A DNA stretch of 46,143 nucleotides from Hydrurus foetidus (Eukaryota). The notes beneath the pieces were generated by a model. That model had not been told where the DNA came from. It made no database searches and saw only the letters and a list, made by a program, of their open reading frames with translations. Of this stretch, positions 1-46,143 are shown piece by piece (within the stretch, counting starts at the first letter, position 1; each line of letters begins with the position of its first letter). The stretch spans positions 1 to 46,143 of the forward strand of contig UYFQ01000196.1 of NCBI GenBank assembly GCA_900617105.1, written 5' to 3'. Both the position numbers and the translations under genes were made by a program.

Positions 1-146
1 CTGTGGGATCATAAAATTCTTAAACAGTGTATCTAGCTATTACCTGCAGTGTTGCACCAGCAGCGAAAGCGATTGTACTAACGTGCAACATTTTACAGAT
101 CAAGCTTTTTCTAATTCGCCACTCTCTCAATTCTTTTTCTGTTTAG

Positions 147-2424
<2,278 letters not shown>

Positions 2425-3325
2425 ATTTCCTCACTAATTTTATAGTAACGCCTGATATTTTCGTGGAATCTACAGGTCCAAGATCTTTTTATGAGTACAT
2501 CGCAAAGTGTTCTAATCCAGATTAATCCAGATTTTTTAAATTCTTAAATTTTCGGCATCTTGTATGGCAACATAATGGGCTAGTGTTGAAGATTTCCAAC
2601 GGGATCGGCAGTATGCATGAAATTATTTATTGGACGTATGTAACATCACAAAAACTTTTCACGTTAATCACTTCTACATTTTAATAACTCCAACACTTTG
2701 CACCGGATTTCGTTGCGCTTTTTTCTTTTTCTCATGTGAGTTTTGGGGTCGAAAATTCGTTCAAAACTATTGAAACGGTTCCTGAGATCGCATGCAGTGG
2801 CGGATGTATTCACACAGCTAGATAGCTACTGTATCGTGTGCGGTATATCATACCATGTACACCGGCACCGCTGAGTAGAACATTTGAGATGTCCAGGACT
2901 AGAGATTTCTGTGAATTGACATAACGGATCGTATCATATCGCACAACCGGATAAACTGTGTGGTGCTGTGTATCATTTTTTACATATCATGTTCCTCTTT
3001 ATGTTCCTCTATTCCACGTCAATTTGAAGTGAAGCAGCCTGTTCTCTGTTCAGTGGTAAATAAATGTCGATAAGAAGGATCAAAAATTGTACCACTCATA
3101 GTGGCTAATAATTTTGTTGTTTTCGGTATGTTTGCTATGGCGAAGTATGCTCACATGAGGAGTGTGAAAGATAAAAGATAGTGCAGTCTTCTGGATTTGC
3201 ACTCGCAGGGAACCTGGGCTGAGGACCGACCTTACACGCAAATACGTGGATAGTTACACGGTTTCGGGATTGGATTCATCTCGCCCCTGCTGCTCTGTGC
3301 TCTGTGAGAGAACCTCTTCGACTCC

Positions 3326-4447
3326 ATGATAACTGAAGTTGCAAAGATGCCATCAACTAGGCTGCCGATGATGACGATCTGCAGCTTTCTCTGGATCCTC
3401 TTAGCTGTATTTACTTTAGAAATCAATAGTTTTGCTCTGAAATGGCACCAAAATGCACATTCCATAAGGTGACAGACAGCTTCTACATTCTACAGACACG
3501 CTTTCGAGAGAGCACAACACTTACTAGGTACTAAAATCTTCTCGTAACATTGTAGGAAATCGTTATTGGAGGCTTCGATTAGCGACGACACAGTTTCGAC
3601 AAAAAAAGCTTCCAAACTGAGAAAGGCTCCTAAACCGAAGAATTACTCGGGCGCTTCAAAACTACCCATTCCCACTAGTACAGATACAGCCTCTACGGTC
3701 ACTCCGTCCCCAGCATTGCAAACTGATGAAAAATTAGTCGCCGTAAACGATATCATTTCTGTAGAGGATGTCGAGAGCGGTCCCGTAACAATGGTAATCT
3801 ACGGCGAACCCACACCGTTGTCGCGTCACATGGTTTCTAGGGGACATATGTACAACCCCTCTGCTGGGCTGCAGAAAGAATTCGCCACTGCCTGCGTGGA
3901 GTTTCTTCCAGCATCGCCGCTTACAGGTCCTTTAGAAGCGACTTTGTTCTTCTACTTTAGCCGTCCTAAGAATCATTACGGAACAGGGAAGAATGCGAAT
4001 GTTCTTAAGCCCTTAACAGCTGGCAACTGGCACTGCAAAAGAAAAGGTGATAAGCTTTATCCTACTCGTTTACCTTTTTATTGCCTCCTCAGAATGCGAC
4101 ATAAAATCATGTTCACAAGACGCTTCATCAATTAGTTTTCATAACCTCCGATATTAACGGTTATTCACGGTCCACATTTATCGCAGTGTACCAACACGCT
4201 ATTTGCTCTTTACCTCAATAAAAACATTCAACAATCACTCACACACACTATCCACTTCTTATTTGATGTAGATTTAGATAATTTGGTGAAATTTGTTCTG
4301 GACGCTTTGAACGCCAAAGCATACGAAGACGATTCTCAAATAGCAGTTATCAAATCCGCGAAATTTTATACTGAAGGAGAACCGTATACGAAAGTAGTTT
4401 TACGGAAATTAACAGAGAAAGATTTTGAGGATTTCAAATTTGATTGA
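3326..4447 (+). CDS. rusA: RusA-family crossover-junction endodeoxyribonuclease (Holliday junction resolvase) with a predicted bipartite N-terminal targeting leader. Exons 3326-3468, 3556-4046, 4272-4447
   Basis: Splicing 4046 to 4272 creates HCKRKDLDNLVKFVLDALNAKAYEDDSQIAVIKSAKFY, the RusA DLDNxxK...DAL...DDxQI signature. Upstream are IYGEPTP, PLTGPLEATLFFYFSRPKNH, typical of phage-type RusA. Exon 1 encodes MITEVAKMPSTRLPMMTICSFLWILLAVFTLEINSFALKWHQNAHSIR. Which ATG (3326 or a later in-frame one) is used is uncertain. Confidence 0.88.
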
Positions 4448-11200: not shown

Positions 11201-14200
11201 CTTTATTTTGGGTGGATCGTGGATCTTCAGATTCCAGACATAATAAACTGGACCGTAACATAGTTGCTGCAAAATGAGCATTCTGAGAATTTGACATGCT
11301 GAGCAGTGTAGCGATGTCGCTTCGCATGAGTGTCGCCTGAGGACTGTCGAGTGTAACACTCTGATAGAGGGAGTCAAACAAGGTAGAGAACAAGGTAGAG
11401 GCGGCTCTCGTGTCTCTCAGACACAGTCCTTGTAAAGGTTTTAGTAAATCACTGAGAGGTAGACATATATCCGGCAATTCTCCTTCCTTGTATTTGCGAT
11501 AAACAATTATTTTAGATGCTCTCTTCAGTTTATCTTCCGCTTGTTTGCTAGCCATTCTAGCTGCCACTAAAGAATAATTCGAAGTCGAAGAATTGGACGA
11601 TTTTTTGTACTTTTTGCCCTCTTCAGAATACGAACTTTCGTCACTTTCTGCTGTACTATTACTATTACTTCCCTTATTTTGTGTACTCGAGTCATATGAC
11701 TGAGAGTAAGAGGAAGAAGAGGAAGAAGAAGAGGGTGGTTTTATCCTGTATCTTTTCGGCACGCGTTGTGTGACTGTTGAAAAGTTTCTACGCCTCATAT
11801 AAGAAGGCAGGCCAGAAGGAGGCAACATTCCTAAGAACTGAGATTGGCCCCTATCCCGACCCCCTACTTGCGTACCCATAGTGTTAGAAGTCCCGGGGGT
11901 AAATAAGGACTGTGTAGATAGAGGATTACGAAATTCAAAATCCGCTTTACTTAATCCGGTTTTTGAGATTCCAGAAAAGTTCTGGGTCTGCATCCACGAC
12001 ACTTCTTGTGTGCCTCTTATTTGTCCAATTCTTCGCACTGAATTCTCTGTGGACTGCGTACCGTAGATTCCAGTATTATTGTTGTATTGATCTTGAGATT
12101 GAGAGGATTGTGTTCTTTCCATGGAGAATAAGGGAAGTGAAAAGTCCAAGTTCCGTCCCCCTGTTTTATTTGTGAGATTCAAATCCGTAAAAAGAGAATC
12201 CGTAACTAACTGTCTGGGATGTATGAATTTTGAGTACTCTTCTTTATTTCTTTTACTCATGCTTACGAGTAAGTACGTACTGTACAGCAGCCAGGAGTCC
12301 GTTCTGGTCGGTTCAAACAGCTGAGTCATCAGTGCGTGCAGGCGTACGTACGGATCAGTACTCAATCCGAACTGATCATTGAAGAAATCGAAAACACGTC
12401 TTCTGATGCCTATTCGTCCTTTAGACTTGACCCCCTCCCCTTGACCTGAATCAATATCTACATCCATGGCACCTATGTTCTCTTCCACCTCTCCCTCTCC
12501 TTCTTTCTCTACCTCTTTCTCTGCATCGTCAATTCCCTCGCTGTCCGGGTCTCTCAGTCCCCGAAGGAGGAGTATGCGCAACTGATGACGCACTCTATCA
12601 GCGATACCCGCCCTCCTAGCAGTGACGTCACTGCTTCCGATGACATCACTGTTCCTATCAGCAGTGACGTCATTGGAAGCAGTGACGTCATGAGAAGGGG
12701 TCGGATTTGTGTTGACCCCTACTACCGGATGGGAAGTGCAGAGCACTAGCAGAAAGTCGTACGATGACTCTCGCACCTAATCAAGTATTCGTGGCGGAAT
12801 GTGATAAAATATGCGTGTCTCGATGAATGAGTTGATAAATTTCAATGCGAGATAACGAGGCATAAATCATGAGGCAATTCGATAAGTTCGCAAAAAATGA
12901 TGGACCATAAAATGGAACAAAGAGAAGCAAAAAGTGCAGTGCACGCATGGTGTAGCACAGTGTAGTATAGTATAGAATAGTATAGTATAGTATAGTATAG
13001 TATAGTATAGTATAGTATAGTATAGAATAGTACAGTATAGAATAGTATAGTATAGTATAGTATAGTATAGTATAGTATAGTATAGTATAGTATAGTATAG
13101 TATAGTATAGTATAGTATAGTATAGTATAGTATATAGTATATAGTATAGTATAGTATAGTATAGTATAGTATAGTATAGTATAGTATAGTATAGTATAGT
13201 ATAGTATAGTATAGTATAGTATAGTATAGTATAGTATAGTATAGTATAGTATAGTATAGTATAGTATAGTATAGTATAGTATAGTATAGTATAGTATAGT
13301 ACAGTACAGTACAGTACAGTACAGTACAGTACAGTACAGTACAGTACAGTACAGTACAGTACAGTACAGTACAGTACAGTACAGTACAGTACAGTACAGT
13401 ACAGTACAGTACAGTACAGTACAGTACAGTACAGTACAGTACAGTACAGTACAGTACAGACAACATCAAGGTGGATATTTGAGAGGCACTCCGTAGCGTT
13501 GTTGCTCTCCAAGTTGGTGTTACACTTCCCGTGAAAAGTGTGTCTCAAAAAAATTTCAAATTCGACCCACAACTGTCAAGTAGCCATATAATCACAGGCA
13601 ACAGAACACAGAACACAAGATAAGCAGTACACACAAACCTTCAAGACAGCTTTCTCACTCAGCACTAATGCTAATCCATGACCCCCTTCAGGGCTGACAT
13701 TTAAATCGTCCCCGTTCTGGGGGGTGAAACCCTGGACCAACATTTCCAATAATTCTACATCAAGACTCTTAGCGTGTCTTGTTAATATTTTAATTGTTAA
13801 TAATTGTATCATGGGCAACCGAATTTTTGGAGGTGGTGACGGGTCGGATTTGGAATTACTGTCACCATCGTCATATCTCAAAACTACAGTCGATAAATCT
13901 GCCAATAATCCGGCCAAAAATGGCCGTAAATGATCCACAACACCCATATTACCGGAATTAGCCGGAGAGTTTACGGAAAATATGTCCGTACTGTTGTACA
14001 CTGCCTGTAAGAACTCGTACCTTCCTCTTGCTTTCAGTCTCCGAAAAGAACTCATCATTCTTAGGAACAGTGGTCTCTTCAAGAATTCCGGATAATTCTT
14101 GGAAATGGAACACAGACAAGAAGATATACCGTCAATACCGTCCTTCAAGACGAATTTTGATTCTATTTTCTGTAGAATGGATTGGGGTAGGGTAGCACAG

Positions 14201-19970: not shown

Positions 19971-22900
19971 GAAGGAAGGAAGGAAGGAAGGAAGGAAGGA
20001 AGGAAGGAAGGAAGGAAGGAAGGAAGGAAGGAAGGAAGGAAGGAAGGAAGGAAGGAAGGAAGGAAGAGAGGATAAATGAATGCAAAACAAAATCATTGAG
20101 AAATGGAGAAGTGCGCACTTACTCAATGTCCCCCTTTAAGATCTTAAAATGACACGCATCCATAAAGTTCCTAAGAAACTTGAAGATGCGGGGACGTGCG
20201 TCACTCTGAGAATCATAATCAAAATGTTCTGCAGAAGACGACTGGCGCTCGTGCTGCTTAGGAACAGAAGAATATTCTGCAGAAGAAGAAGATAGAACAC
20301 TCGCTTTGCGCTTGGACCCTCTTTCCGCCTTAATCACCACTTCAACTTCAACTGCAACTTCAACTTCAAGTTGGGGAGATGAGAATAATTGCTGTGGTGT
20401 GAGGTATTTGGATTTCAATAGCCAGTGGTACGCATCCGTCACGGCGCTGAGTCTCTCCAGCCATCCGATCTCATTGAAAAGGGACCCTGGACCAGACCCC
20501 ATCCCGGACCTTAAACCAGACCCTGGACCTGATTCTGGGACAGATCCTGGACCGGATCCTGAACCTGACCTTAGTCCAGATTTCAGATTAGATAGAACTT
20601 GGACCGTAGAGTTCGGAAGTGTTACATCGTAGCAATCTTGAATGACACCGTCCCTAGTCACGCTCTCTATCACCGCTATGATGCCACGCATTCCCTTCTC
20701 CTCTGCAAGTCCTTTTAAGTACATCGCAACCCTCCCCTGGGACCCGCCGGTAAACCTGGTATGTCCGATATGATCCGACCCCACACCTGTATGTACGACT
20801 GTACGGAATGGCAGTAGCGGACAGAGAGTGGTGAAACACGCCATGCAAGACCTTCGAAAGTATGTGTTGCTGCTGCCGCAACCGGTCCACAGCCATTCCA
20901 CTAGTGCACCCAGGTTCTGGGGATGGGTCCGTGAGTCGTCCACCCTTGGGGAAAATATATTAGTATTAAGTGCATCAACTGAGAAAATGAAATTAGATAT
21001 TTAAATGAGAGTATTAGATAAAAAATCAAACAAGAAATGACATTAAGCGAACAAGGTAGGAAAATTAGAAAAGAGAAAAATATGGAAAGATAAATACTTC
21101 TCGACATCACCTACAAACAAATACCAATAAAAAATGCCCGCGTAAAGTGTAAGTAACGTGATAAAAAAAACATCGCTTCGTGGGTGATATGAATTGTATA
21201 TTGAATTGTCACTCCTCTTCTCTTATTCGACACAAGTTAATTAAATCCATTTTAAATGTGTTCTTTTTCAAATATTGTTTCTAATATTCTTGTTCAATGT
21301 TTGTGGCATTATTCCTATCACATATTTAGATACACGCCACACGACAGTAACATCTACACTTATCACACTTGTCATACTTGTCATACTTGTCACACTTATC
21401 AAAGGATTTACTCTTACTTCAGTAGAGAAGAATCTTCGCTGGACCTTATGAAACGGGCGATAAGAGTTTCATACTTCTGAGCAGTGCCAGCTATCTCCTA
21501 TACACCGGATGAGTTGATGATGAGTGGATAGACAGACCAGTAGGTGAATGCATCGCTTCATTGCATAGATTAATAAAATATCATGAAGTGCAGTTGGAAA
21601 CGAAAAGAGAAGAGGAGATCCCATACAAGTAACACGCACAGACACACTCACACCCTCATTCACACAGACCTGAAGTGTCTCGTTGGTCCCCCCTGCTCTA
21701 AGCGCTTTTAGGAGGGTGAAGAGAACTTGCATTGCATATCGGTGAATCAAACTTGTCTCCCCACCGAAGATCCTACAGTGAAAAAGTGTACGCGTACAGA
21801 ATACATTTCATTACAAATTTTGTATTTGTACGCATGGAGTATTGTGTTGCTGCTGCAGCTCTTCTTAATCTGAAGAAGAAATAATGAAAGCATTTAAATA
21901 AACACTATGTTCAATCATATAAATATAATAGGTACCCTGTTGTTGTACATGCGGCTCGAAAAGATAACACTGTTTAACACGTCACCACAAAAAGCTTACT
22001 TAAATATTTTGTTGAGAGTTGAGGCGGCTCCCAGCCTCTTCATCTCCTGTGGATGACACACTAAGAGCAGCAATCTCAATATCAGATCGGAACAGGTATT
22101 ATCTGCTGCTAATTCCTTTTTACTGGATTGTTTTACTATCCATTTAAAGTACTCCGTCAAAGCATCTGCGCACTGTGTATTATAGCGGAAATACGGTTAG
22201 CGGAAATACGGTTAAAAATTGGTCGTGAGATAGATTACTTTTGTTTTGAGAGTAATGAAGTGTTGATCAATGCAATATCGAAGGGCAGTAAGCGATGTTT
22301 CAGTGTAGTGTAGTGCAGTGTGGTATAGTGTAGTGTAGAGTAGAGTAGTGTAGTGTAGAGTAGTGTAGTGTAGTGTAGTGTGGTGTAGTGTAGTGTAGTG
22401 TATAAAGTGTAGTGCAGTATGATGAAGTGTGGTGTAGTGTAATGTAGTGTAGTGTAGTGTAGTGTAGTGTAGTGCAGTGTTGTGTAGTGTAGTGTAGTGT
22501 AGTGTAGTGTAGTGTGGTGTATGTGTGAGTGTAGTGTGGTGTAGTGTGTGTAGTGTAGTGTAGTGTGTGTAGTGTAGTGTGTGTAGTGTAGTGTAGTGTG
22601 GTGTAGTGTGGTGTAGTGCAGTGTAGTGTGGTGTAGTGTAGTGTAGTGTAGTGTAGTGTAGTGTAGTGTAGTGTAGTGTGGTGTAGTGTAGTGTGTAGTG
22701 TAGTGTGGTGTAGTGTAGTGTAGTGTGTGTAGTGTAGTGTGGTGTGAGTGTAGTGTGGTGTAGTGTAGTGTGGTGGTGTGATGAAGTGTGGTGTGAGTGT
22801 GGTGTAGTGAGTGGGTGTGTAGTGTAGTGTAGTGTAGTGTAGTAGTGTAGTGCAGTGTATGTAGTGTAGTGCAGTGTAGTGTAGTGTAGTGCAGTGTGTG

Positions 22901-25900
22901 TATAGTGTAGTGTAGTGTGGTGTGAGTGTAGTGCAGTGTAGTGTAGTGTGTGTGGTGTAGTGTAGTGTGGTGTGAGTGTAGTGTAGTGTGTGGAGTGTAG
23001 TGTGGTATGGTGTAGTGTAGTGTAGTGTAGTGTAGTGTAGTGTAGTGTAGTGTAGTGTAGTGTAGTGTGGTGTAGTGTGGTGTAGTGTAGTGTAGTGTAG
23101 TTGTAGTGTGGTGTAGTGTAGTGTAGTGTTGTGTGTGTGTGTGATGTGGTGTAGTGTAGTGTGAGTGATGTGTGGTGTAGTGTAGTGTAGTGTAGTGTAG
23201 TGTAGTGTAGTGTAGTGCAGTGTGTGTAGTGTAGTGTGTGTAGTGTAGTGTGGTGTGGTGTGGTGTAGTGCAGTGTTGTGTAGTGTAGTGTAGTGTAGTG
23301 TAGTGTAGTGTAGTGTGGTGTAGTGTGGTGTAGTGTAGTGTAGTGTAGTGTAGTGTAGTGTAGTGTAGTGTAGTGTAGTGTAGTGTAGTGTAGTGTAGTG
23401 TGGTGTAGTGTAGTGTAGTGTAGTGTGGTGTAGTGTAGTGTAGTGTAGTGTAGTGTAGTGTAGTGTAGTGTAGTGTAGTGTAGTGTAGTGTAGTGTGGTG
23501 TAGTGTGATGTAGTGTAGTGTAGTGTAGTGTAGTGTAGTGTAGTGTAGTGTAGTGTAGTGTGGTGTAGTGTAGTGTAGTGTAGTGTGAGTGCAGTGTAGT
23601 GTGTGAGTGTAGTGTAGTGTGTAGTGTAGTGTGTGGTGTAGTGTAGTGTAGTGCAGTGTGGTGTGTGGTGTAGTGTAGTGTAGTGTAGTGTGGTGTGGTG
23701 TAGTGTAGTGTTGTGTAGTGTAGTGTAGTGTAGTGTAGTGTAGTGTAGTGTAGTGTAGTGTAGTGTAGTGTAGTGTAGTGTAGTGTAGTGTAGTGTAGTG
23801 TAGTGTGGTGTAGTGTGGTGTAGTGTGGTGTAGTGTAGTGTAGTGTGGTGTAGTGTAGTGTAGTGTAGTGTAGTGTGGTGTAGTGTAGTGTAGTGTAGTG
23901 TAGTGTAGTGTAGTGTAGTGTGGTGTAGTGTGGTGTGGTGTAGTGTAGTGTGGTGTAGTGTAGTGTAGTGTAGTGTAGTGTGTTGGTGTGGTGTGTGTAG
24001 TGTAGTGTAGTGTGGTGTGGTGTGTGTGTAGTGTAGTGTAGTGTAGTGTAGTGTAGTGTGGTGCAGTGTAGTGTAGTGTAGTGTGAGTGTGTAGTGTAGT
24101 GTAGTGTAGTGTGGTGTAGTGTAGTGTGGTGTAGTGTAGTGTAGTGTAGTGTAGTGTAGTGTAGTGTAGTGTAGTGTAGTGTAGTGTAGTGTAGTGTGGT
24201 GTAGTGTGGTGTAGTGTAGTGTAGTGTAGTGTAGTGTGGTGTAGTGTAGTGTAGTGTAGTGTAGTGTAGTGTAGTGTGGTGCAGTGTGTGTGTGTGTGTG
24301 GTGTTGTGTGGTGTGGTGTGGTGTAGTGTAGTGTAGTGTAGTGTGGTGTAGTGTAGTGTAGTGTGTGTGTGTGTGTGGTGTAGTGTAGTGTAGTGTGAGT
24401 GTAGTGTAGTGTGGTGTAGTGTGGTGTAGTGGTGTGAGTGTGTGGTGTAGTGTAGTGTAGTGTAGTGTAGTGTAGTGTAGTGTAGTGTAGTGTAGTGTAG
24501 TGTAGTGTAGTGTAGTGTAGTGTAGTGTAGTGTAGTGTAGTGTGATGTAGTGTGGTGTGGTGTAGTGTAGTGTAGTGTAGTGTGGTGTAGTGTAGTGTAG
24601 TGTAGTGTAGTGTAGTGTGGTGTAGTGTAGTGTAGTGTAGTGTAGTGTAGTGTAGTGTGATGTAGTGTAGTGTAGTGTGGTGTAGTGTAGTGTAGTGTAG
24701 TGTAGTGTAGTGTAGTGTAGTGTGGTGTAGTGTAGTGTAGTGTAGTGTAGTGTAGTGTAGTGTAGTGTAGTGTAGTGTAGTGTAGGGTAGTGTAGTGTAG
24801 TGTAGTGTATCACAGCCCTAAACATGCGATGATGTAACACACAAGTTGTAAGGAGGAAGACAAGAATATTTCCACGTACTTGATTTCTGAGTTTCGCGTC
24901 ACTGGTGTCGGAGAGACCGTCAATAAGAGTGTCTAGCAGCACAGCAGACTCCGACTCATGCACATTGTCTCTCCCCGCAAACCACCTCACCACTTGATAC
25001 AGAAGAGTGTGGAACAACTGACTGCACAGTGCATCGCCGCTCACTGACAGTCTCACAGCGGTTGGGAGCACTAAAGAGTACATGGGGGTAAATCGAGAAT
25101 CCCCGGCCCGGACCTTGGACCCAGATGCTGCTGCACCCACCATGTAGCTGATTATTCCGTGTAAAAACTCCGCAGCTGCAAGGCGTGCTTGACGATCACC
25201 TTATTGTCCGAATATATGTGATAAAAAGAGTTTATGCTTGGGAAATTCAACATAAGTTGCATTCGAAACTTGCATTACATCTTATTTTTAAAAATAATTT
25301 GATTTTAAATTGGGTTAGTAGAAGTAAAATATCATTCCATCATGTCAAGGGAGAGGGAGGGGAAAGGGGAGAGAGACGACACCTTCGAGATCGTGACATA
25401 TGTTACAAAGTCACACTGCAGCTTATAATTCAATATACTTAAAGACAATTTATGATAGATCACGATATTTGAAGATAATTTGTTTCATCCTCTCACCTGA
25501 CTCGACTGAGGCACTCAAGGTAGACCCAGAACCAGATCTGGAATCTGACCCGGACTGCCCCTGGGGGCTGCACAACTCCACGACTCGAGGAAGGAGCTTG
25601 TCAAGGGACAGAGAAATGCTTTTCAAATGGGGAGTTGAGGCAAAAGATCGTGAAGACGTAGCAGAGTGGGAGAGAGGTAGAGAAAGAGGTAGTGGGAGCT
25701 CGATAGTAAGGCAGTCTGAGCCATTCCAAGCAGCAGACGCCTGTACTGCGAGAGATGGGTTCACCAACAACTTCTGGTTTCTCCCACCCAAGATCCCCAA
25801 AAGACGGACTATGGATCTGTGCAGATTCTTGTTTTCAGTTCTATCCGGAGTATTAAATTCGGCAGATCCTGGACCGTCCAGGGTGGAATCTGCTGTAGAC

Positions 25901-40146: not shown

Positions 40147-41940
40147 TCAAACTTCAAGTGCGGCTTCTGCCTCAGCGGCAGCAATAGCGGCTGCCTTCTC
40201 ATTCTCCGCTGCTCTGAAAAACGCCTCAGCAGCCGCGGCAGCTGCCTCATGTATCACTGCTGCTGCATCCGCCCTTATCTTATTCTCAGGCACAGAAAAA
40301 GCTCTTAGCTGTACCATTCTATCTTCGATTTTAACCACAGGGAAGGAGGGATTAACAACCCCTTTTGAGAGGTGCAATAATTGAAGTTGATCTCCTACAT
40401 CAGGTCCGCTCATCCTTCCAGTTAGCGCTAGTCTGACAGTGTGGAATAATGGTTTCCCCTTCAGTCCAAGTTCCTTCCCAAGTGTTTTCATGTATGTTTT
40501 CCACACTTCAGGAAAATTCTCTTCAGGCCCTGTGGGGAGTACTTTAGCATCATAATCACGCAGTAATGCATTGATAACTTTCTCACAGGTCTCTGACTCT
40601 GCTAGTACCTCCAGTACGTGTGGGTCAGCCTCGATAGTATCCGATAGTTCGTACTTCAAGCACCCGCCGATGAGTCTTCTGGCGTCTATTATGAGTTCCA
40701 TGTCCTTCTGAGCGACTCCAGCTGCACGTACGACAAAAGCCGTTACACCCTCTGTAACTTCCGCACCTTTGACAAGAATTGGCTCCTCTCCGCCCTGTAG
40801 AGTATCGCCCACTAATGCTTCAATCTCCGTCCTTGGAATCGCACGTAAGTGCTGACCGTTTATCCATCTCAACTTCACCATGTCGAATACTGCTGGGCTC
40901 TTCACTACTCTGTTAAGATCAAATGCTGCAATTAATTCTTCAGGAGAATATATCTCTTTTGGTGTGCCGTCGTTCCAACCCAAATTGGCGAGGTAATTCA
41001 TCATTGCCTGAGGGAGGAAACCTTGTTCCGCAAATTGAGAAACGGAAGTTGCTCCGTGTCTTTTTGACAACTTTGAGCGATCTTGACCGAGAATAAGAGA
41101 GCAATGTGCGTATGTAGGTGGCCTATATCCCAGAGCCTCAAGTATGAGCATTTGACGCAGAGTGTTTGTAAGATGTTCTTCCGCCCTTATCACATGGGTG
41201 ATCTGCATGTTCGCGTCGTCCACTGCCACACAGAAGTTGTACACAGGCATTCCATTGGACCTCAATATAATGAAGTCGCCCAACGATGCATCCGCCTCCC
41301 ATGTTACCTTCCCGCGGACAACGTCATCTATTGAAACTACTTTTCCGTCAGGAACTTGGAATCTTACTGTGAAAGGTTCATTGTTATCTAGCTTCTTCTG
41401 GATTTCTACAGGATCGGCATTGCGCCATGTTCCATCGTACTTTGGGTCTACACCAGCAGCCTCGGCGATCTCGCGCTTTTTAGTCAACTCCTCTTCTGTG
41501 CAAAAGCATCTAAACGCCTTTCCAGATGCAATAAGCTGATCAGCATATTTCTTGTAAATGTCCTTCCTCTCGGACTGCCTGTATGGTCCAAAAGGTCCCT
41601 CAACTTCTGGTCCCTCATCCCACTTCATATTCATCCATGTCAGGTCGCCCAAAATCATGTTCTCCGATTCTCTGGTCGATCGTGCCTCATCAGTATCTTC
41701 AACTCTTACGATGAATGTGCCCTTTGTCTTTCTCGCTAACAGCCAGTTAAATAGCGCGGTTCTGGCACCTCCTACATGGAGAGATCCTGTAGGTGAGGGG
41801 GCAAATCGAACTCGCACAGGTGCTAGACTAGAGCTTTTTGCCATTACTAATGTCCTCAAACTAGTTTTGCGGAACGACGTGCCCCTGAAGGCGTTCGACA
41901 TGGATAAAAGCATGACAGAGATCCCCATCAACATCCTCAT
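40147..41940 (-). CDS. gltX: Glutamate--tRNA ligase, bacterial/organellar type, intronless, with a bipartite plastid-targeting presequence
   Basis: VRVRFAPSPTGSLHVGGARTALFNWL (HIGH-like), RVEDTD, YRQSER, DDANMQITHVIRAEEHL, KLSKRHGA (KMSKS-like), and anticodon-domain VRLALTGRMSGPD. Leader MRMLMGISVMLLSMSNA-FRGTSFRKTSLRTLVM fits a signal peptide plus ASAF-type cleavage site. Confidence 0.96.
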   Translation of the reverse strand: MRMLMGISVMLLSMSNAFRGTSFRKTSLRTLVMAKSSSLAPVRVRFAPSPTGSLHVGGARTALFNWLLARKTKGTFIVRVEDTDEARSTRESENMILGDLTWMNMKWDEGPEVEGPFGPYRQSERKDIYKKYADQLIASGKAFRCFCTEEELTKKREIAEAAGVDPKYDGTWRNADPVEIQKKLDNNEPFTVRFQVPDGKVVSIDDVVRGKVTWEADASLGDFIILRSNGMPVYNFCVAVDDANMQITHVIRAEEHLTNTLRQMLILEALGYRPPTYAHCSLILGQDRSKLSKRHGATSVSQFAEQGFLPQAMMNYLANLGWNDGTPKEIYSPEELIAAFDLNRVVKSPAVFDMVKLRWINGQHLRAIPRTEIEALVGDTLQGGEEPILVKGAEVTEGVTAFVVRAAGVAQKDMELIIDARRLIGGCLKYELSDTIEADPHVLEVLAESETCEKVINALLRDYDAKVLPTGPEENFPEVWKTYMKTLGKELGLKGKPLFHTVRLALTGRMSGPDVGDQLQLLHLSKGVVNPSFPVVKIEDRMVQLRAFSVPENKIRADAAAVIHEAAAAAAEAFFRAAENEKAAAIAAAEAEAALEV

Positions 41941-45212: not shown

Positions 45213-46143
45213 TTACTTGTCTGTCGGAATTATTTTCGACATGCCGTGAAGGCGTAGATATGTGTGAAGAGCGTCTGTAAGACGAAGATTCTTCCACGAC
45301 TCCCACGTATTGTGCGAGTCATCAAAGTCAGTCCATTTGACTAAAAACCGCATTTGGGTTTTGCGCCTGGAATTACCTTGGTGTTGAAGAATGGAATCGA
45401 TAAAGAATTCCATATAATCGCGGCGTGATACATCAGCAGGATCCGTGTGTTTCGGATTGAAAACAAATTGTTTAAGATTACTAATATGAAGATGTTTATG
45501 TTTCTTCGTAGTTATATCTAACAACGTATAATCAGAATTGTGAATCGATATCACTTGAAACGGTCCCCGCCACAACGTGTGTAACCGTGTGGGCGGTTGT
45601 GTGGTATATCTAGCCAACACATATGAACCTACGGGAAAAACCGTTATATCCTGTGGACTTGTGGCAACGTGAGCCGCGTCCATTGTGCGCAAAGCAGTTT
45701 GTGCTTGGGCAATCAGGGTATCCTGGATGTGATACATCTCACAGACCACTTTCGATGCGGAAGTTTCCACTTCCGGTAATTGTGGGAATGGTGACAGTAT
45801 GCCCGAATCAAGATTGATTTGGTTACCAAACAATAAACTTGCTGGAGAGGCATTGGTACTGCTGTGAATTGAAGAATTCAAAATGCGCTGTACAAACGGT
45901 AAGCAGTTTTTGTACTGGTATACGTCGTTTGTATCATACAGGAACGAACGTAAGTACCGGTTAATTTCTTTATTAACTCGTTCAACTATAGCATTCTCTT
46001 GTTTAGAGTATGCTAGTGTCAAGTTGTGGGGTGTACCCGTTGACACGAGGAATTGTTTGATCAATTCGTTAGCAAAATGCGAACCCCGATCAGATCAATT
46101 TGGGGTGCACCGTATCTTGCAAAGTGCGAACCCCGACTAGTGT
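45213..46143 (-). mobile_element. Ty3/gypsy (chromovirus-like) LTR retrotransposon, 3' end of pol: integrase core, GPY/F region and chromodomain. Degenerate, runs off the window edge
   Basis: SDRGSHFANELIKQFL...AYSKQENAIVERVNKEI (second D and the E of DDE), LHTLWRGPFQV, HISNLKQF, and chromodomain FFIDSILQHQG...FLVKWTDFDDSHNTWESWKNL. Confidence 0.92.

Follow-up and report, generated by a model that had tools for sequence, protein, structure and literature searches.

A nuclear RusA-family gene of Hydrurus foetidus encodes a candidate plastid Holliday-junction resolvase

What does a gene of the RusA family of Holliday-junction resolvases do in the nuclear genome of an alga? Such a gene is present in the 46,143 nt of the Hydrurus foetidus contig UYFQ01000196.1 analyzed here (this whole stretch is referred to as the window), and a preliminary description of the DNA had proposed that its product acts on plastid DNA. 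Among characterized organellar resolvases, PMC7078210 names Cce1, Ydc2, and MOC1 and describes MOC1 and Ydc2 as RuvC-like; the same text describes MOC1, the protein of green algae and plants, as structurally closest to RuvC and reports that its loss leads to aberrant nucleoids. A resolvase of golden-alga or diatom plastids was not found in the literature searched. Among the results listed by full-text searches, none dealt with RusA in plastids or in eukaryotes, although relevant supplements might list the family. The main text of PMC5462543 contained no match for RusA, resolvase, or Holliday, and no matches were obtained in the supplements of PMC9546453 (8 files) and PMC11014865 (10 of the 14 files). 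In our assessment, with a probability of roughly two in three, the window protein is a Holliday-junction resolvase of the plastid stroma, whose proposed job and compartment match those of MOC1. As MOC1 is RuvC-like and the family described here has the RusA fold, the protein is proposed to be an analogue of green MOC1, not a homologue.

The gene was modeled with three exons (3326-3468/3556-4046/4272-4447) on the forward strand, which are open for 269 aa; an in-frame stop codon is located upstream, at 3305. The features of the model are:

3326..3468, forward strand: exon 1, N-terminal extension with the signal-like stretch and the beginning of the transit-like peptide
3374..3430, forward strand: signal-peptide-like hydrophobic stretch, residues 17-35, with the (-3,-1)-type site INS at its end (hydropathy, heuristic)
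3431..3433, forward strand: Phe36, predicted to be residue +1 in the transit peptide (from sequence)
3469..3555, forward strand: intron 1, GT..AG, 87 nt, phase 2
3556..4046, forward strand: exon 2, remaining transit-like peptide, Lys-rich and Ser/Thr-rich linker, and N-terminal half of RusA (from about 3785)
3593..3661, forward strand: Lys-rich segment in exon 2, residues 61-83 (from sequence)
4047..4271, forward strand: intron 2, GT..AG, 225 nt, phase 1, interrupting the codon of D212, the equivalent of E. coli D70
4272..4447, forward strand: exon 3, containing the catalytic half of the domain (D214 at 4277-4279, N215, K218 at 4289-4291, and D231/D232 at 4328-4333) and the stop codon

This is one of 30 open exon models in the ranges searched; openness by itself thus cannot select it, and other evidence is needed. 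The candidate start codons are Met 1, 8, 15, and 16, all ahead of the hydrophobic stretch, and position 3583 is an alternative to 3556 as the acceptor of intron 1. Both introns had been postulated in the preliminary description, and the GT..AG ends are indeed found at the proposed positions, with intron 2 located inside a catalytic codon. The homologues bear on this second intron. Among 54 homologue ORFs that end after the N-terminal half of the domain, 41 have a Gly at the D212 position according to a strict pattern, and the same break is visible by eye in 51. Gly instead of Asp is expected there if translation runs on as G|GT into an intron. In one further homologue (P0040), the open frame continues through an intron located at this position, and six others are continuous across it (L001-L003, P0037, P0038, and the transcript-derived P0042). 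Homology to such intronless or spliced homologues fixes the predicted 4046/4272 join, and by the same comparison intron 2 appears to be real, with a position common to the eukaryotic RusA clade. Because the intron interrupts a catalytic codon, gene callers miss or mislabel members of the family. The protein P0025, whose NCBI record RYH06785.1 describes it as a hypothetical protein of an "archaeon", looks like the N-terminal half of a eukaryotic RusA broken at the conserved intron, and this record is probably mislabeled.

Transcription was assessed with two raw RNA runs from one sample carrying the same species label; about 6% of each was read, and splice joints were listed only when represented by at least three reads. 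The library is well stranded: the gene upstream of the RusA gene shows five GT-AG joints with 150 to 250 reads each. For the RusA gene, 24 reads were found, corresponding to about 12 short fragments, of which about nine are sense by our reading; the depth is similar to that of the neighboring kinase gene. According to the bin depths, one sense fragment covers exon 1 from about 3346 to 3469, and its end coincides with the donor plus one shared G (bin arithmetic, 1.81 × 64 = 2 × 58). The depth is zero from 3476 to 3539 in intron 1, with coverage on both flanks, and sense depth is 2 to 6 across about 3556-3945 of exon 2. On the opposite strand, two fragments map to intron 2 and one to exon 2; read-through from the convergent PI3K-family gene may explain those in the intron. 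Thus, the RusA gene is weakly transcribed, and exons 1 and 2 are transcribed in the sense direction. At the threshold of three reads, no splice joint of the RusA gene was listed in the 6% samples, and exon 3 had zero reads in these samples, among about nine sense fragments. The reads of exons 1 and 2, coming without a listed joint, demonstrate transcription, whereas splicing is only deduced. A pseudogene was considered and ruled out, since the frame is open, the active site intact, and the gene transcribed.

The RusA gene is found in an ordinary nuclear setting, flanked by a gene of SDR type, which is spliced, and by a gene of the PI3K family; it has a signal-like leader, and no tyrosine recombinase is adjacent. 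The upstream neighbor (145-2700, forward strand) is highly expressed, contains five RNA-confirmed GT-AG introns, and extends at its 5' end beyond the window; from its motifs, we take it to be a FabG-like short-chain dehydrogenase. The downstream neighbor (5281-28881, reverse strand), which is convergent with the RusA gene, is very large, has many exons, and contains the Pfam domain PI3_PI4_kinase; it is presumably DNA-PKcs-like. Within it, apparently in an intron, there is a degenerate pentamer-type tandem repeat of about 2.6 kb (22212-24817) with a GC skew of up to 0.98, and a similar tract is present at about 12850-13450. An ORF close to the other end of the window (45213-46094, reverse strand) resembles a retrotransposon integrase with a chromodomain. 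Bacterial contamination was also considered and was ruled out by the GT-AG introns and the eukaryotic neighbors. In the region 2900-3460, upstream of and into exon 1 of the RusA gene, the DNA contigs represent two haplotypes with about half the depth each and up to 15 differences per 203 nt, which suggests a heterozygous diploid.

The identity of the encoded protein was assessed at the levels of domain, residues, and fold. Exon 3 matches positions 82-123 of Pfam RusA (PF05866) with an E value of 1e-9 and 39.2 bits, above the curated cut-off of 22.8, and exon 2 matches positions 2-66 with an E value of 0.005 and 17.8 bits, below that cut-off, so that the two exons are consecutive halves of the domain. 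When the eukaryotic homologues were compared as a profile with E. coli RusA (1q8r), the alignment spanned residues 67-117 of the latter (E value 2e-4); according to it, D70, D72, N73, K76, and D90/D91 of E. coli have their equivalents in D212, D214, N215, K218, and D231/D232. These six equivalents are conserved in 80 to 81 of the 82 rows of the clade. D72 and D91 presumably have roles in the catalytic site of E. coli RusA. D70 and K76 are named in PMC12120656, which also gives R69 as crucial. At the R69 position, the window protein has K211, and K is found in 57 of 81 clade rows; across the eukaryotic clade, K, P, S, C, or T occupies this position. The K at this position is a point against the reading as a plastid resolvase; as a substitution, it would be conservative. 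The RusA alpha/beta fold is predicted for the homologue L001, which is 63% identical to the window protein and has an AlphaFold model with a pLDDT of 95.6. In a Foldseek search with this model, the top seven matches, and all matches with E values of 0.001 or lower, were RusA chains, and neither RuvC nor MOC1 was among the matches listed. Exon 3 alone as a query against the PDB gave no match. Altogether, the comparisons show a RusA sequence whose predicted site of acidic residues and Lys is intact. They bear out the proposals that the protein would be recognized by the Pfam RusA model (exon 3 above the cut-off, exon 2 on the complementary half) and that splicing would retain the acidic triad and the Lys (D212, D214, K218, and D232 by alignment to 1q8r).

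The window protein shares with E. coli RusA (PF05866; PDB 1q8r, 2h8c, and 2h8e) the Pfam family, the fold predicted for L001, and the equivalents of D70, D72, N73, K76, D90, and D91. In contrast to the E. coli gene, its gene is nuclear, contains two introns, and lies outside of a prophage; the protein differs by about 120 additional N-terminal residues with a signal-plus-Phe leader, by an insertion before the catalytic helix, and by K at the R69 position.

The N-terminal extension is the feature that points to the plastid. Residues 17-35 reach a KD value of 2.7 over 11, and the protein passed our home-made heuristic, which requires an uncharged hydrophobic 9-mer within the first 45 residues, with a 9-mer of KD 2.96 followed by the INS site. 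The 20 to 21 residues after F36 contain three K/R and one E. Thus, the leader is much as first described, that is, a hydrophobic stretch (17-35), INS-F36, and a net positive segment. The described SNA-F layout of gltX in the same window (40147-41940, reverse strand) was also recovered; this intronless gene has a bipartite-type leader, which would imply plastid translation and a plastid genome. A Met lies downstream of the gltX leader, an arrangement that might permit dual targeting. The leader of the window protein resembles the bipartite ASAFAP-type presequences of red-lineage complex plastids described in PMC4329603: its hydrophobic stretch ends with small residues in positions -3 and -1, and F at +1 precedes a segment that is net positive and acid-poor.

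Leaders were counted in 79 Met-starting rows of the clade and in 124 rows outside of it. A signal-like stretch was found in 41 of the 79, versus one of the 124. In 33 of the 41 signal-bearing rows, F/W/Y/L comes directly after a (-3,-1) site (20.6 ± 2.9 in 1000 shuffles, maximum 31), and in 21 the residue at +1 is F (7.9 ± 2.4 in shuffles, maximum 16). In 28 of the 33 leaders, the 20 residues after +1 are net positive, and acidic residues are rarer there than further on (0.8 versus 2.3 per 20). None of the 33 leader-bearing rows ends in an ER-retention motif. As these rows are related and not independent, the counts speak for one trait that has been conserved and not for 33 events that occurred separately. 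A bipartite-like leader that exceeds shuffled controls thus appears to be a clade-wide trait of these RusAs, as judged by the heuristic. Basic patches like the Lys-rich segment 61-83 are, by eye, present in many homologues. In the intronless L001-L003, the N-terminal leader and the RusA domain are in one ORF, and eukaryotic-type genes adjoin. The remaining 38 of the 79 rows have no detectable signal, and many of them are evident fragments; P0070 (Epipyxis) and P0085 (Chlorochromonas) fail the heuristic, and P0118, P0246, P0197, P0176, and P0215, in or near the eukaryotic clade, seem to be truly leaderless. The Phaeodactylum homologue Phatr2a_54080 failed ASAFind in the published table of PMC4329603, where it is given as "Not plastid, SignalP positive" with cleavage at 18; its GSA-F motif is near residue 33, beyond that cleavage site. 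The same table gives a second Phaeodactylum RusA, Phatr2u_1304, without a signal peptide. The original reading of the gene as a plastid resolvase is thus backed by the intact RusA, the nuclear setting, and the clade-wide leader, and the ASAFind call on Phatr2a_54080 counts against it.

To which proteins is the window protein related? Out of 429 search hits, 357 had a domain coverage of 70% or more; a score floor and dereplication at 80% left 216 rows for a FastTree analysis, in which the clade containing the window protein comprises 82 rows. In an IQ-TREE analysis of 47 hand-picked rows, 20 eukaryotic rows form one clade with support of 100/98. The clade members with a named source are three chrysophytes, namely Ochromonas sp. 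CCMP1393, Epipyxis sp., and Chlorochromonas danica; most others are environmental proteins, for which the label "eukaryotic" derives from tree position, introns, and leaders. Many members carry the automatic JGI name "Holliday junction resolvase RusA-like endonuclease". Phatr2a_54080 was likened to the P0136/P0121 group by motif only, and no RusA of Thalassiosira pseudonana was among the motif matches listed from supplementary files. The eukaryotic RusAs thus group in one clade, which is consistent with a single old acquisition, the likely scenario on the basis of the trees.

The nearest non-eukaryotic RusAs are up to about 49% identical across the domain. Among them are loci that resemble phages or prophages, part of which lie in genomes of Bacteroidota. 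The closest are a phage/prophage subfamily (Sphingobacterium L016 and L017) and proteins of giant viruses (GVMAG contigs L116, L121, and L129), which have the same insertion as the window protein. In contrast to the eukaryotic proteins, hardly any of them (1 of 124) carries a signal-like leader, and they form separate branches. On several GVMAG contigs of the giant-virus group, RusA is located near MutS and DUF5767, and on other viral contigs its neighbor is a family B polymerase with an intein; the giant-virus and viral loci observed are L116, L121, L124, L128, and L129 (around 2998-3430) as well as L110, L111, and L112. The literature search returned no paper on giant-virus RusA among the results listed, and a single-protein scan of viral contigs found no relative. 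In a quick tree of 105 rows and in FastTree, the eukaryotes were placed together with rows of giant-virus type (92 and 93), whereas in the 47-row IQ-TREE the support for the sister group of the eukaryotic clade was only 48/66. As the grouping is unsupported in this careful tree, a giant-virus donor is not claimed. Of the idea that the gene was acquired horizontally from a phage, the acquisition fits the single eukaryotic clade, whereas a phage is only one of the candidate donors, given that giant viruses have a RusA clade of their own and the sister group has a support of 48/66. One may go further and suppose that ochrophytes took up RusA in a single event, whose source may have been a giant virus or virus-like mobile element, that they added a plastid leader, and that they now depend on it as their main plastid resolvase in place of RuvC/MOC1; we regard this extended scenario as rather doubtful. 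If true, it would be a third, virus-derived solution for organellar junction resolution, with leaderless sister copies still mobile on elements.

If the window protein is a stromal resolvase, the following course of events can be envisaged. A single acquisition at an early stage of ochrophyte evolution is probable, with the RusA of a phage, a bacterium, or a giant virus as the source. The precursor would enter the plastid ER co-translationally via the signal-plus-Phe leader, would be cleaved at INS/F36, and would pass to the stroma, where the transit peptide would be removed. A stromal homodimer would then bind four-way junctions and introduce Mg2+-dependent paired nicks, by analogy with E. 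coli RusA, which acts as a dimer with Mg2+-dependent nicking of four-way junctions according to PMC12120656. Members of the RusA family cleave such junctions at CC. Junction cutting would separate recombined or replicated copies of the plastid genome, for example, across the inverted repeat, and would unlink them after recombination or replication restart. The separated copies could then be partitioned into nucleoids, as with green MOC1.

Several alternatives share part of this evidence. An organellar resolvase could be dual-targeted to plastid and mitochondrion or be mainly mitochondrial; a title in the reference list of PMC8064548 credits MOC1 of algae and bryophytes with the maintenance of both organellar genomes, that of the plastid and that of the mitochondrion, and dual targeting in ochrophytes is discussed in PMC5462543. 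The window protein would fit with its four possible starts ahead of the hydrophobic stretch and its basic segment behind, but no Met from which a mitochondrial form could start is present between the cleavage site and residue 127, and in only seven of the 33 leaders does a Met occur 30 residues or fewer from +1. A signal peptide, in addition, sends a protein to the ER first, and we consider dual targeting or a mainly mitochondrial role quite unlikely. Entry into the ER would also suit a nuclease of the secretory pathway or the periplastid space, for example, one that digests prey DNA in the food vacuoles of mixotrophic chrysophytes. The ASAFind call on Phatr2a_54080 (table in PMC4329603) favors such an enzyme, as do the absence of an F/W/Y/L +1 site in eight of the 41 signal-bearing rows and an N-x-S/T sequon seen by eye in the linker of close relatives. 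The enrichment of +1 Phe and of a positive, acid-poor next segment over shuffles argues against it. The ochrophyte periplastid space is not known to contain DNA, which counts against a nuclease at that site. Moreover, RusA is a structure-specific junction cutter according to PMC12120656, a poor fit to bulk digestion, and overall a digestive role seems very improbable.

Leaderless eukaryotic RusAs (Phatr2u_1304, P0118, and P0197) and the RusAs carried by giant viruses could indicate that the gene is a relic of a mobile element or virus that is active in the nucleus, with an incidental leader. We find such a relic hard to believe, because the genes on both sides are ordinary and spliced and an ORF for a recombinase is absent from the neighborhood; in addition, the intron is clade-wide, the catalytic residues are intact, and numerous divergent members carry a leader. 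It is just as hard to believe that the protein is imported into the plastid and has ceased to be a resolvase, serving as a DNA-binding nucleoid protein or as a nuclease for other branched DNA. The variable R69 position (K, P, S, C, or T), the Lys-rich linker, and the insertion seen in comparison with E. coli RusA (TM-score 0.55-0.63) are compatible with such a change of function; yet, the six aligned residues of the catalytic region are conserved in 80 to 81 of 82 rows, and the insertion is common to phage and bacterial relatives.

A resolvase of the plastid stroma remains the preferred reading. The RusA family provides a named, conserved candidate for plastid genome resolution and segregation in the red lineage, and with Phatr2a_54080 a homologue is present in a genetically tractable diatom, so that these processes are directly testable. 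If the proposal is true, a viral or bacterial recombination enzyme would have been domesticated for an organelle.
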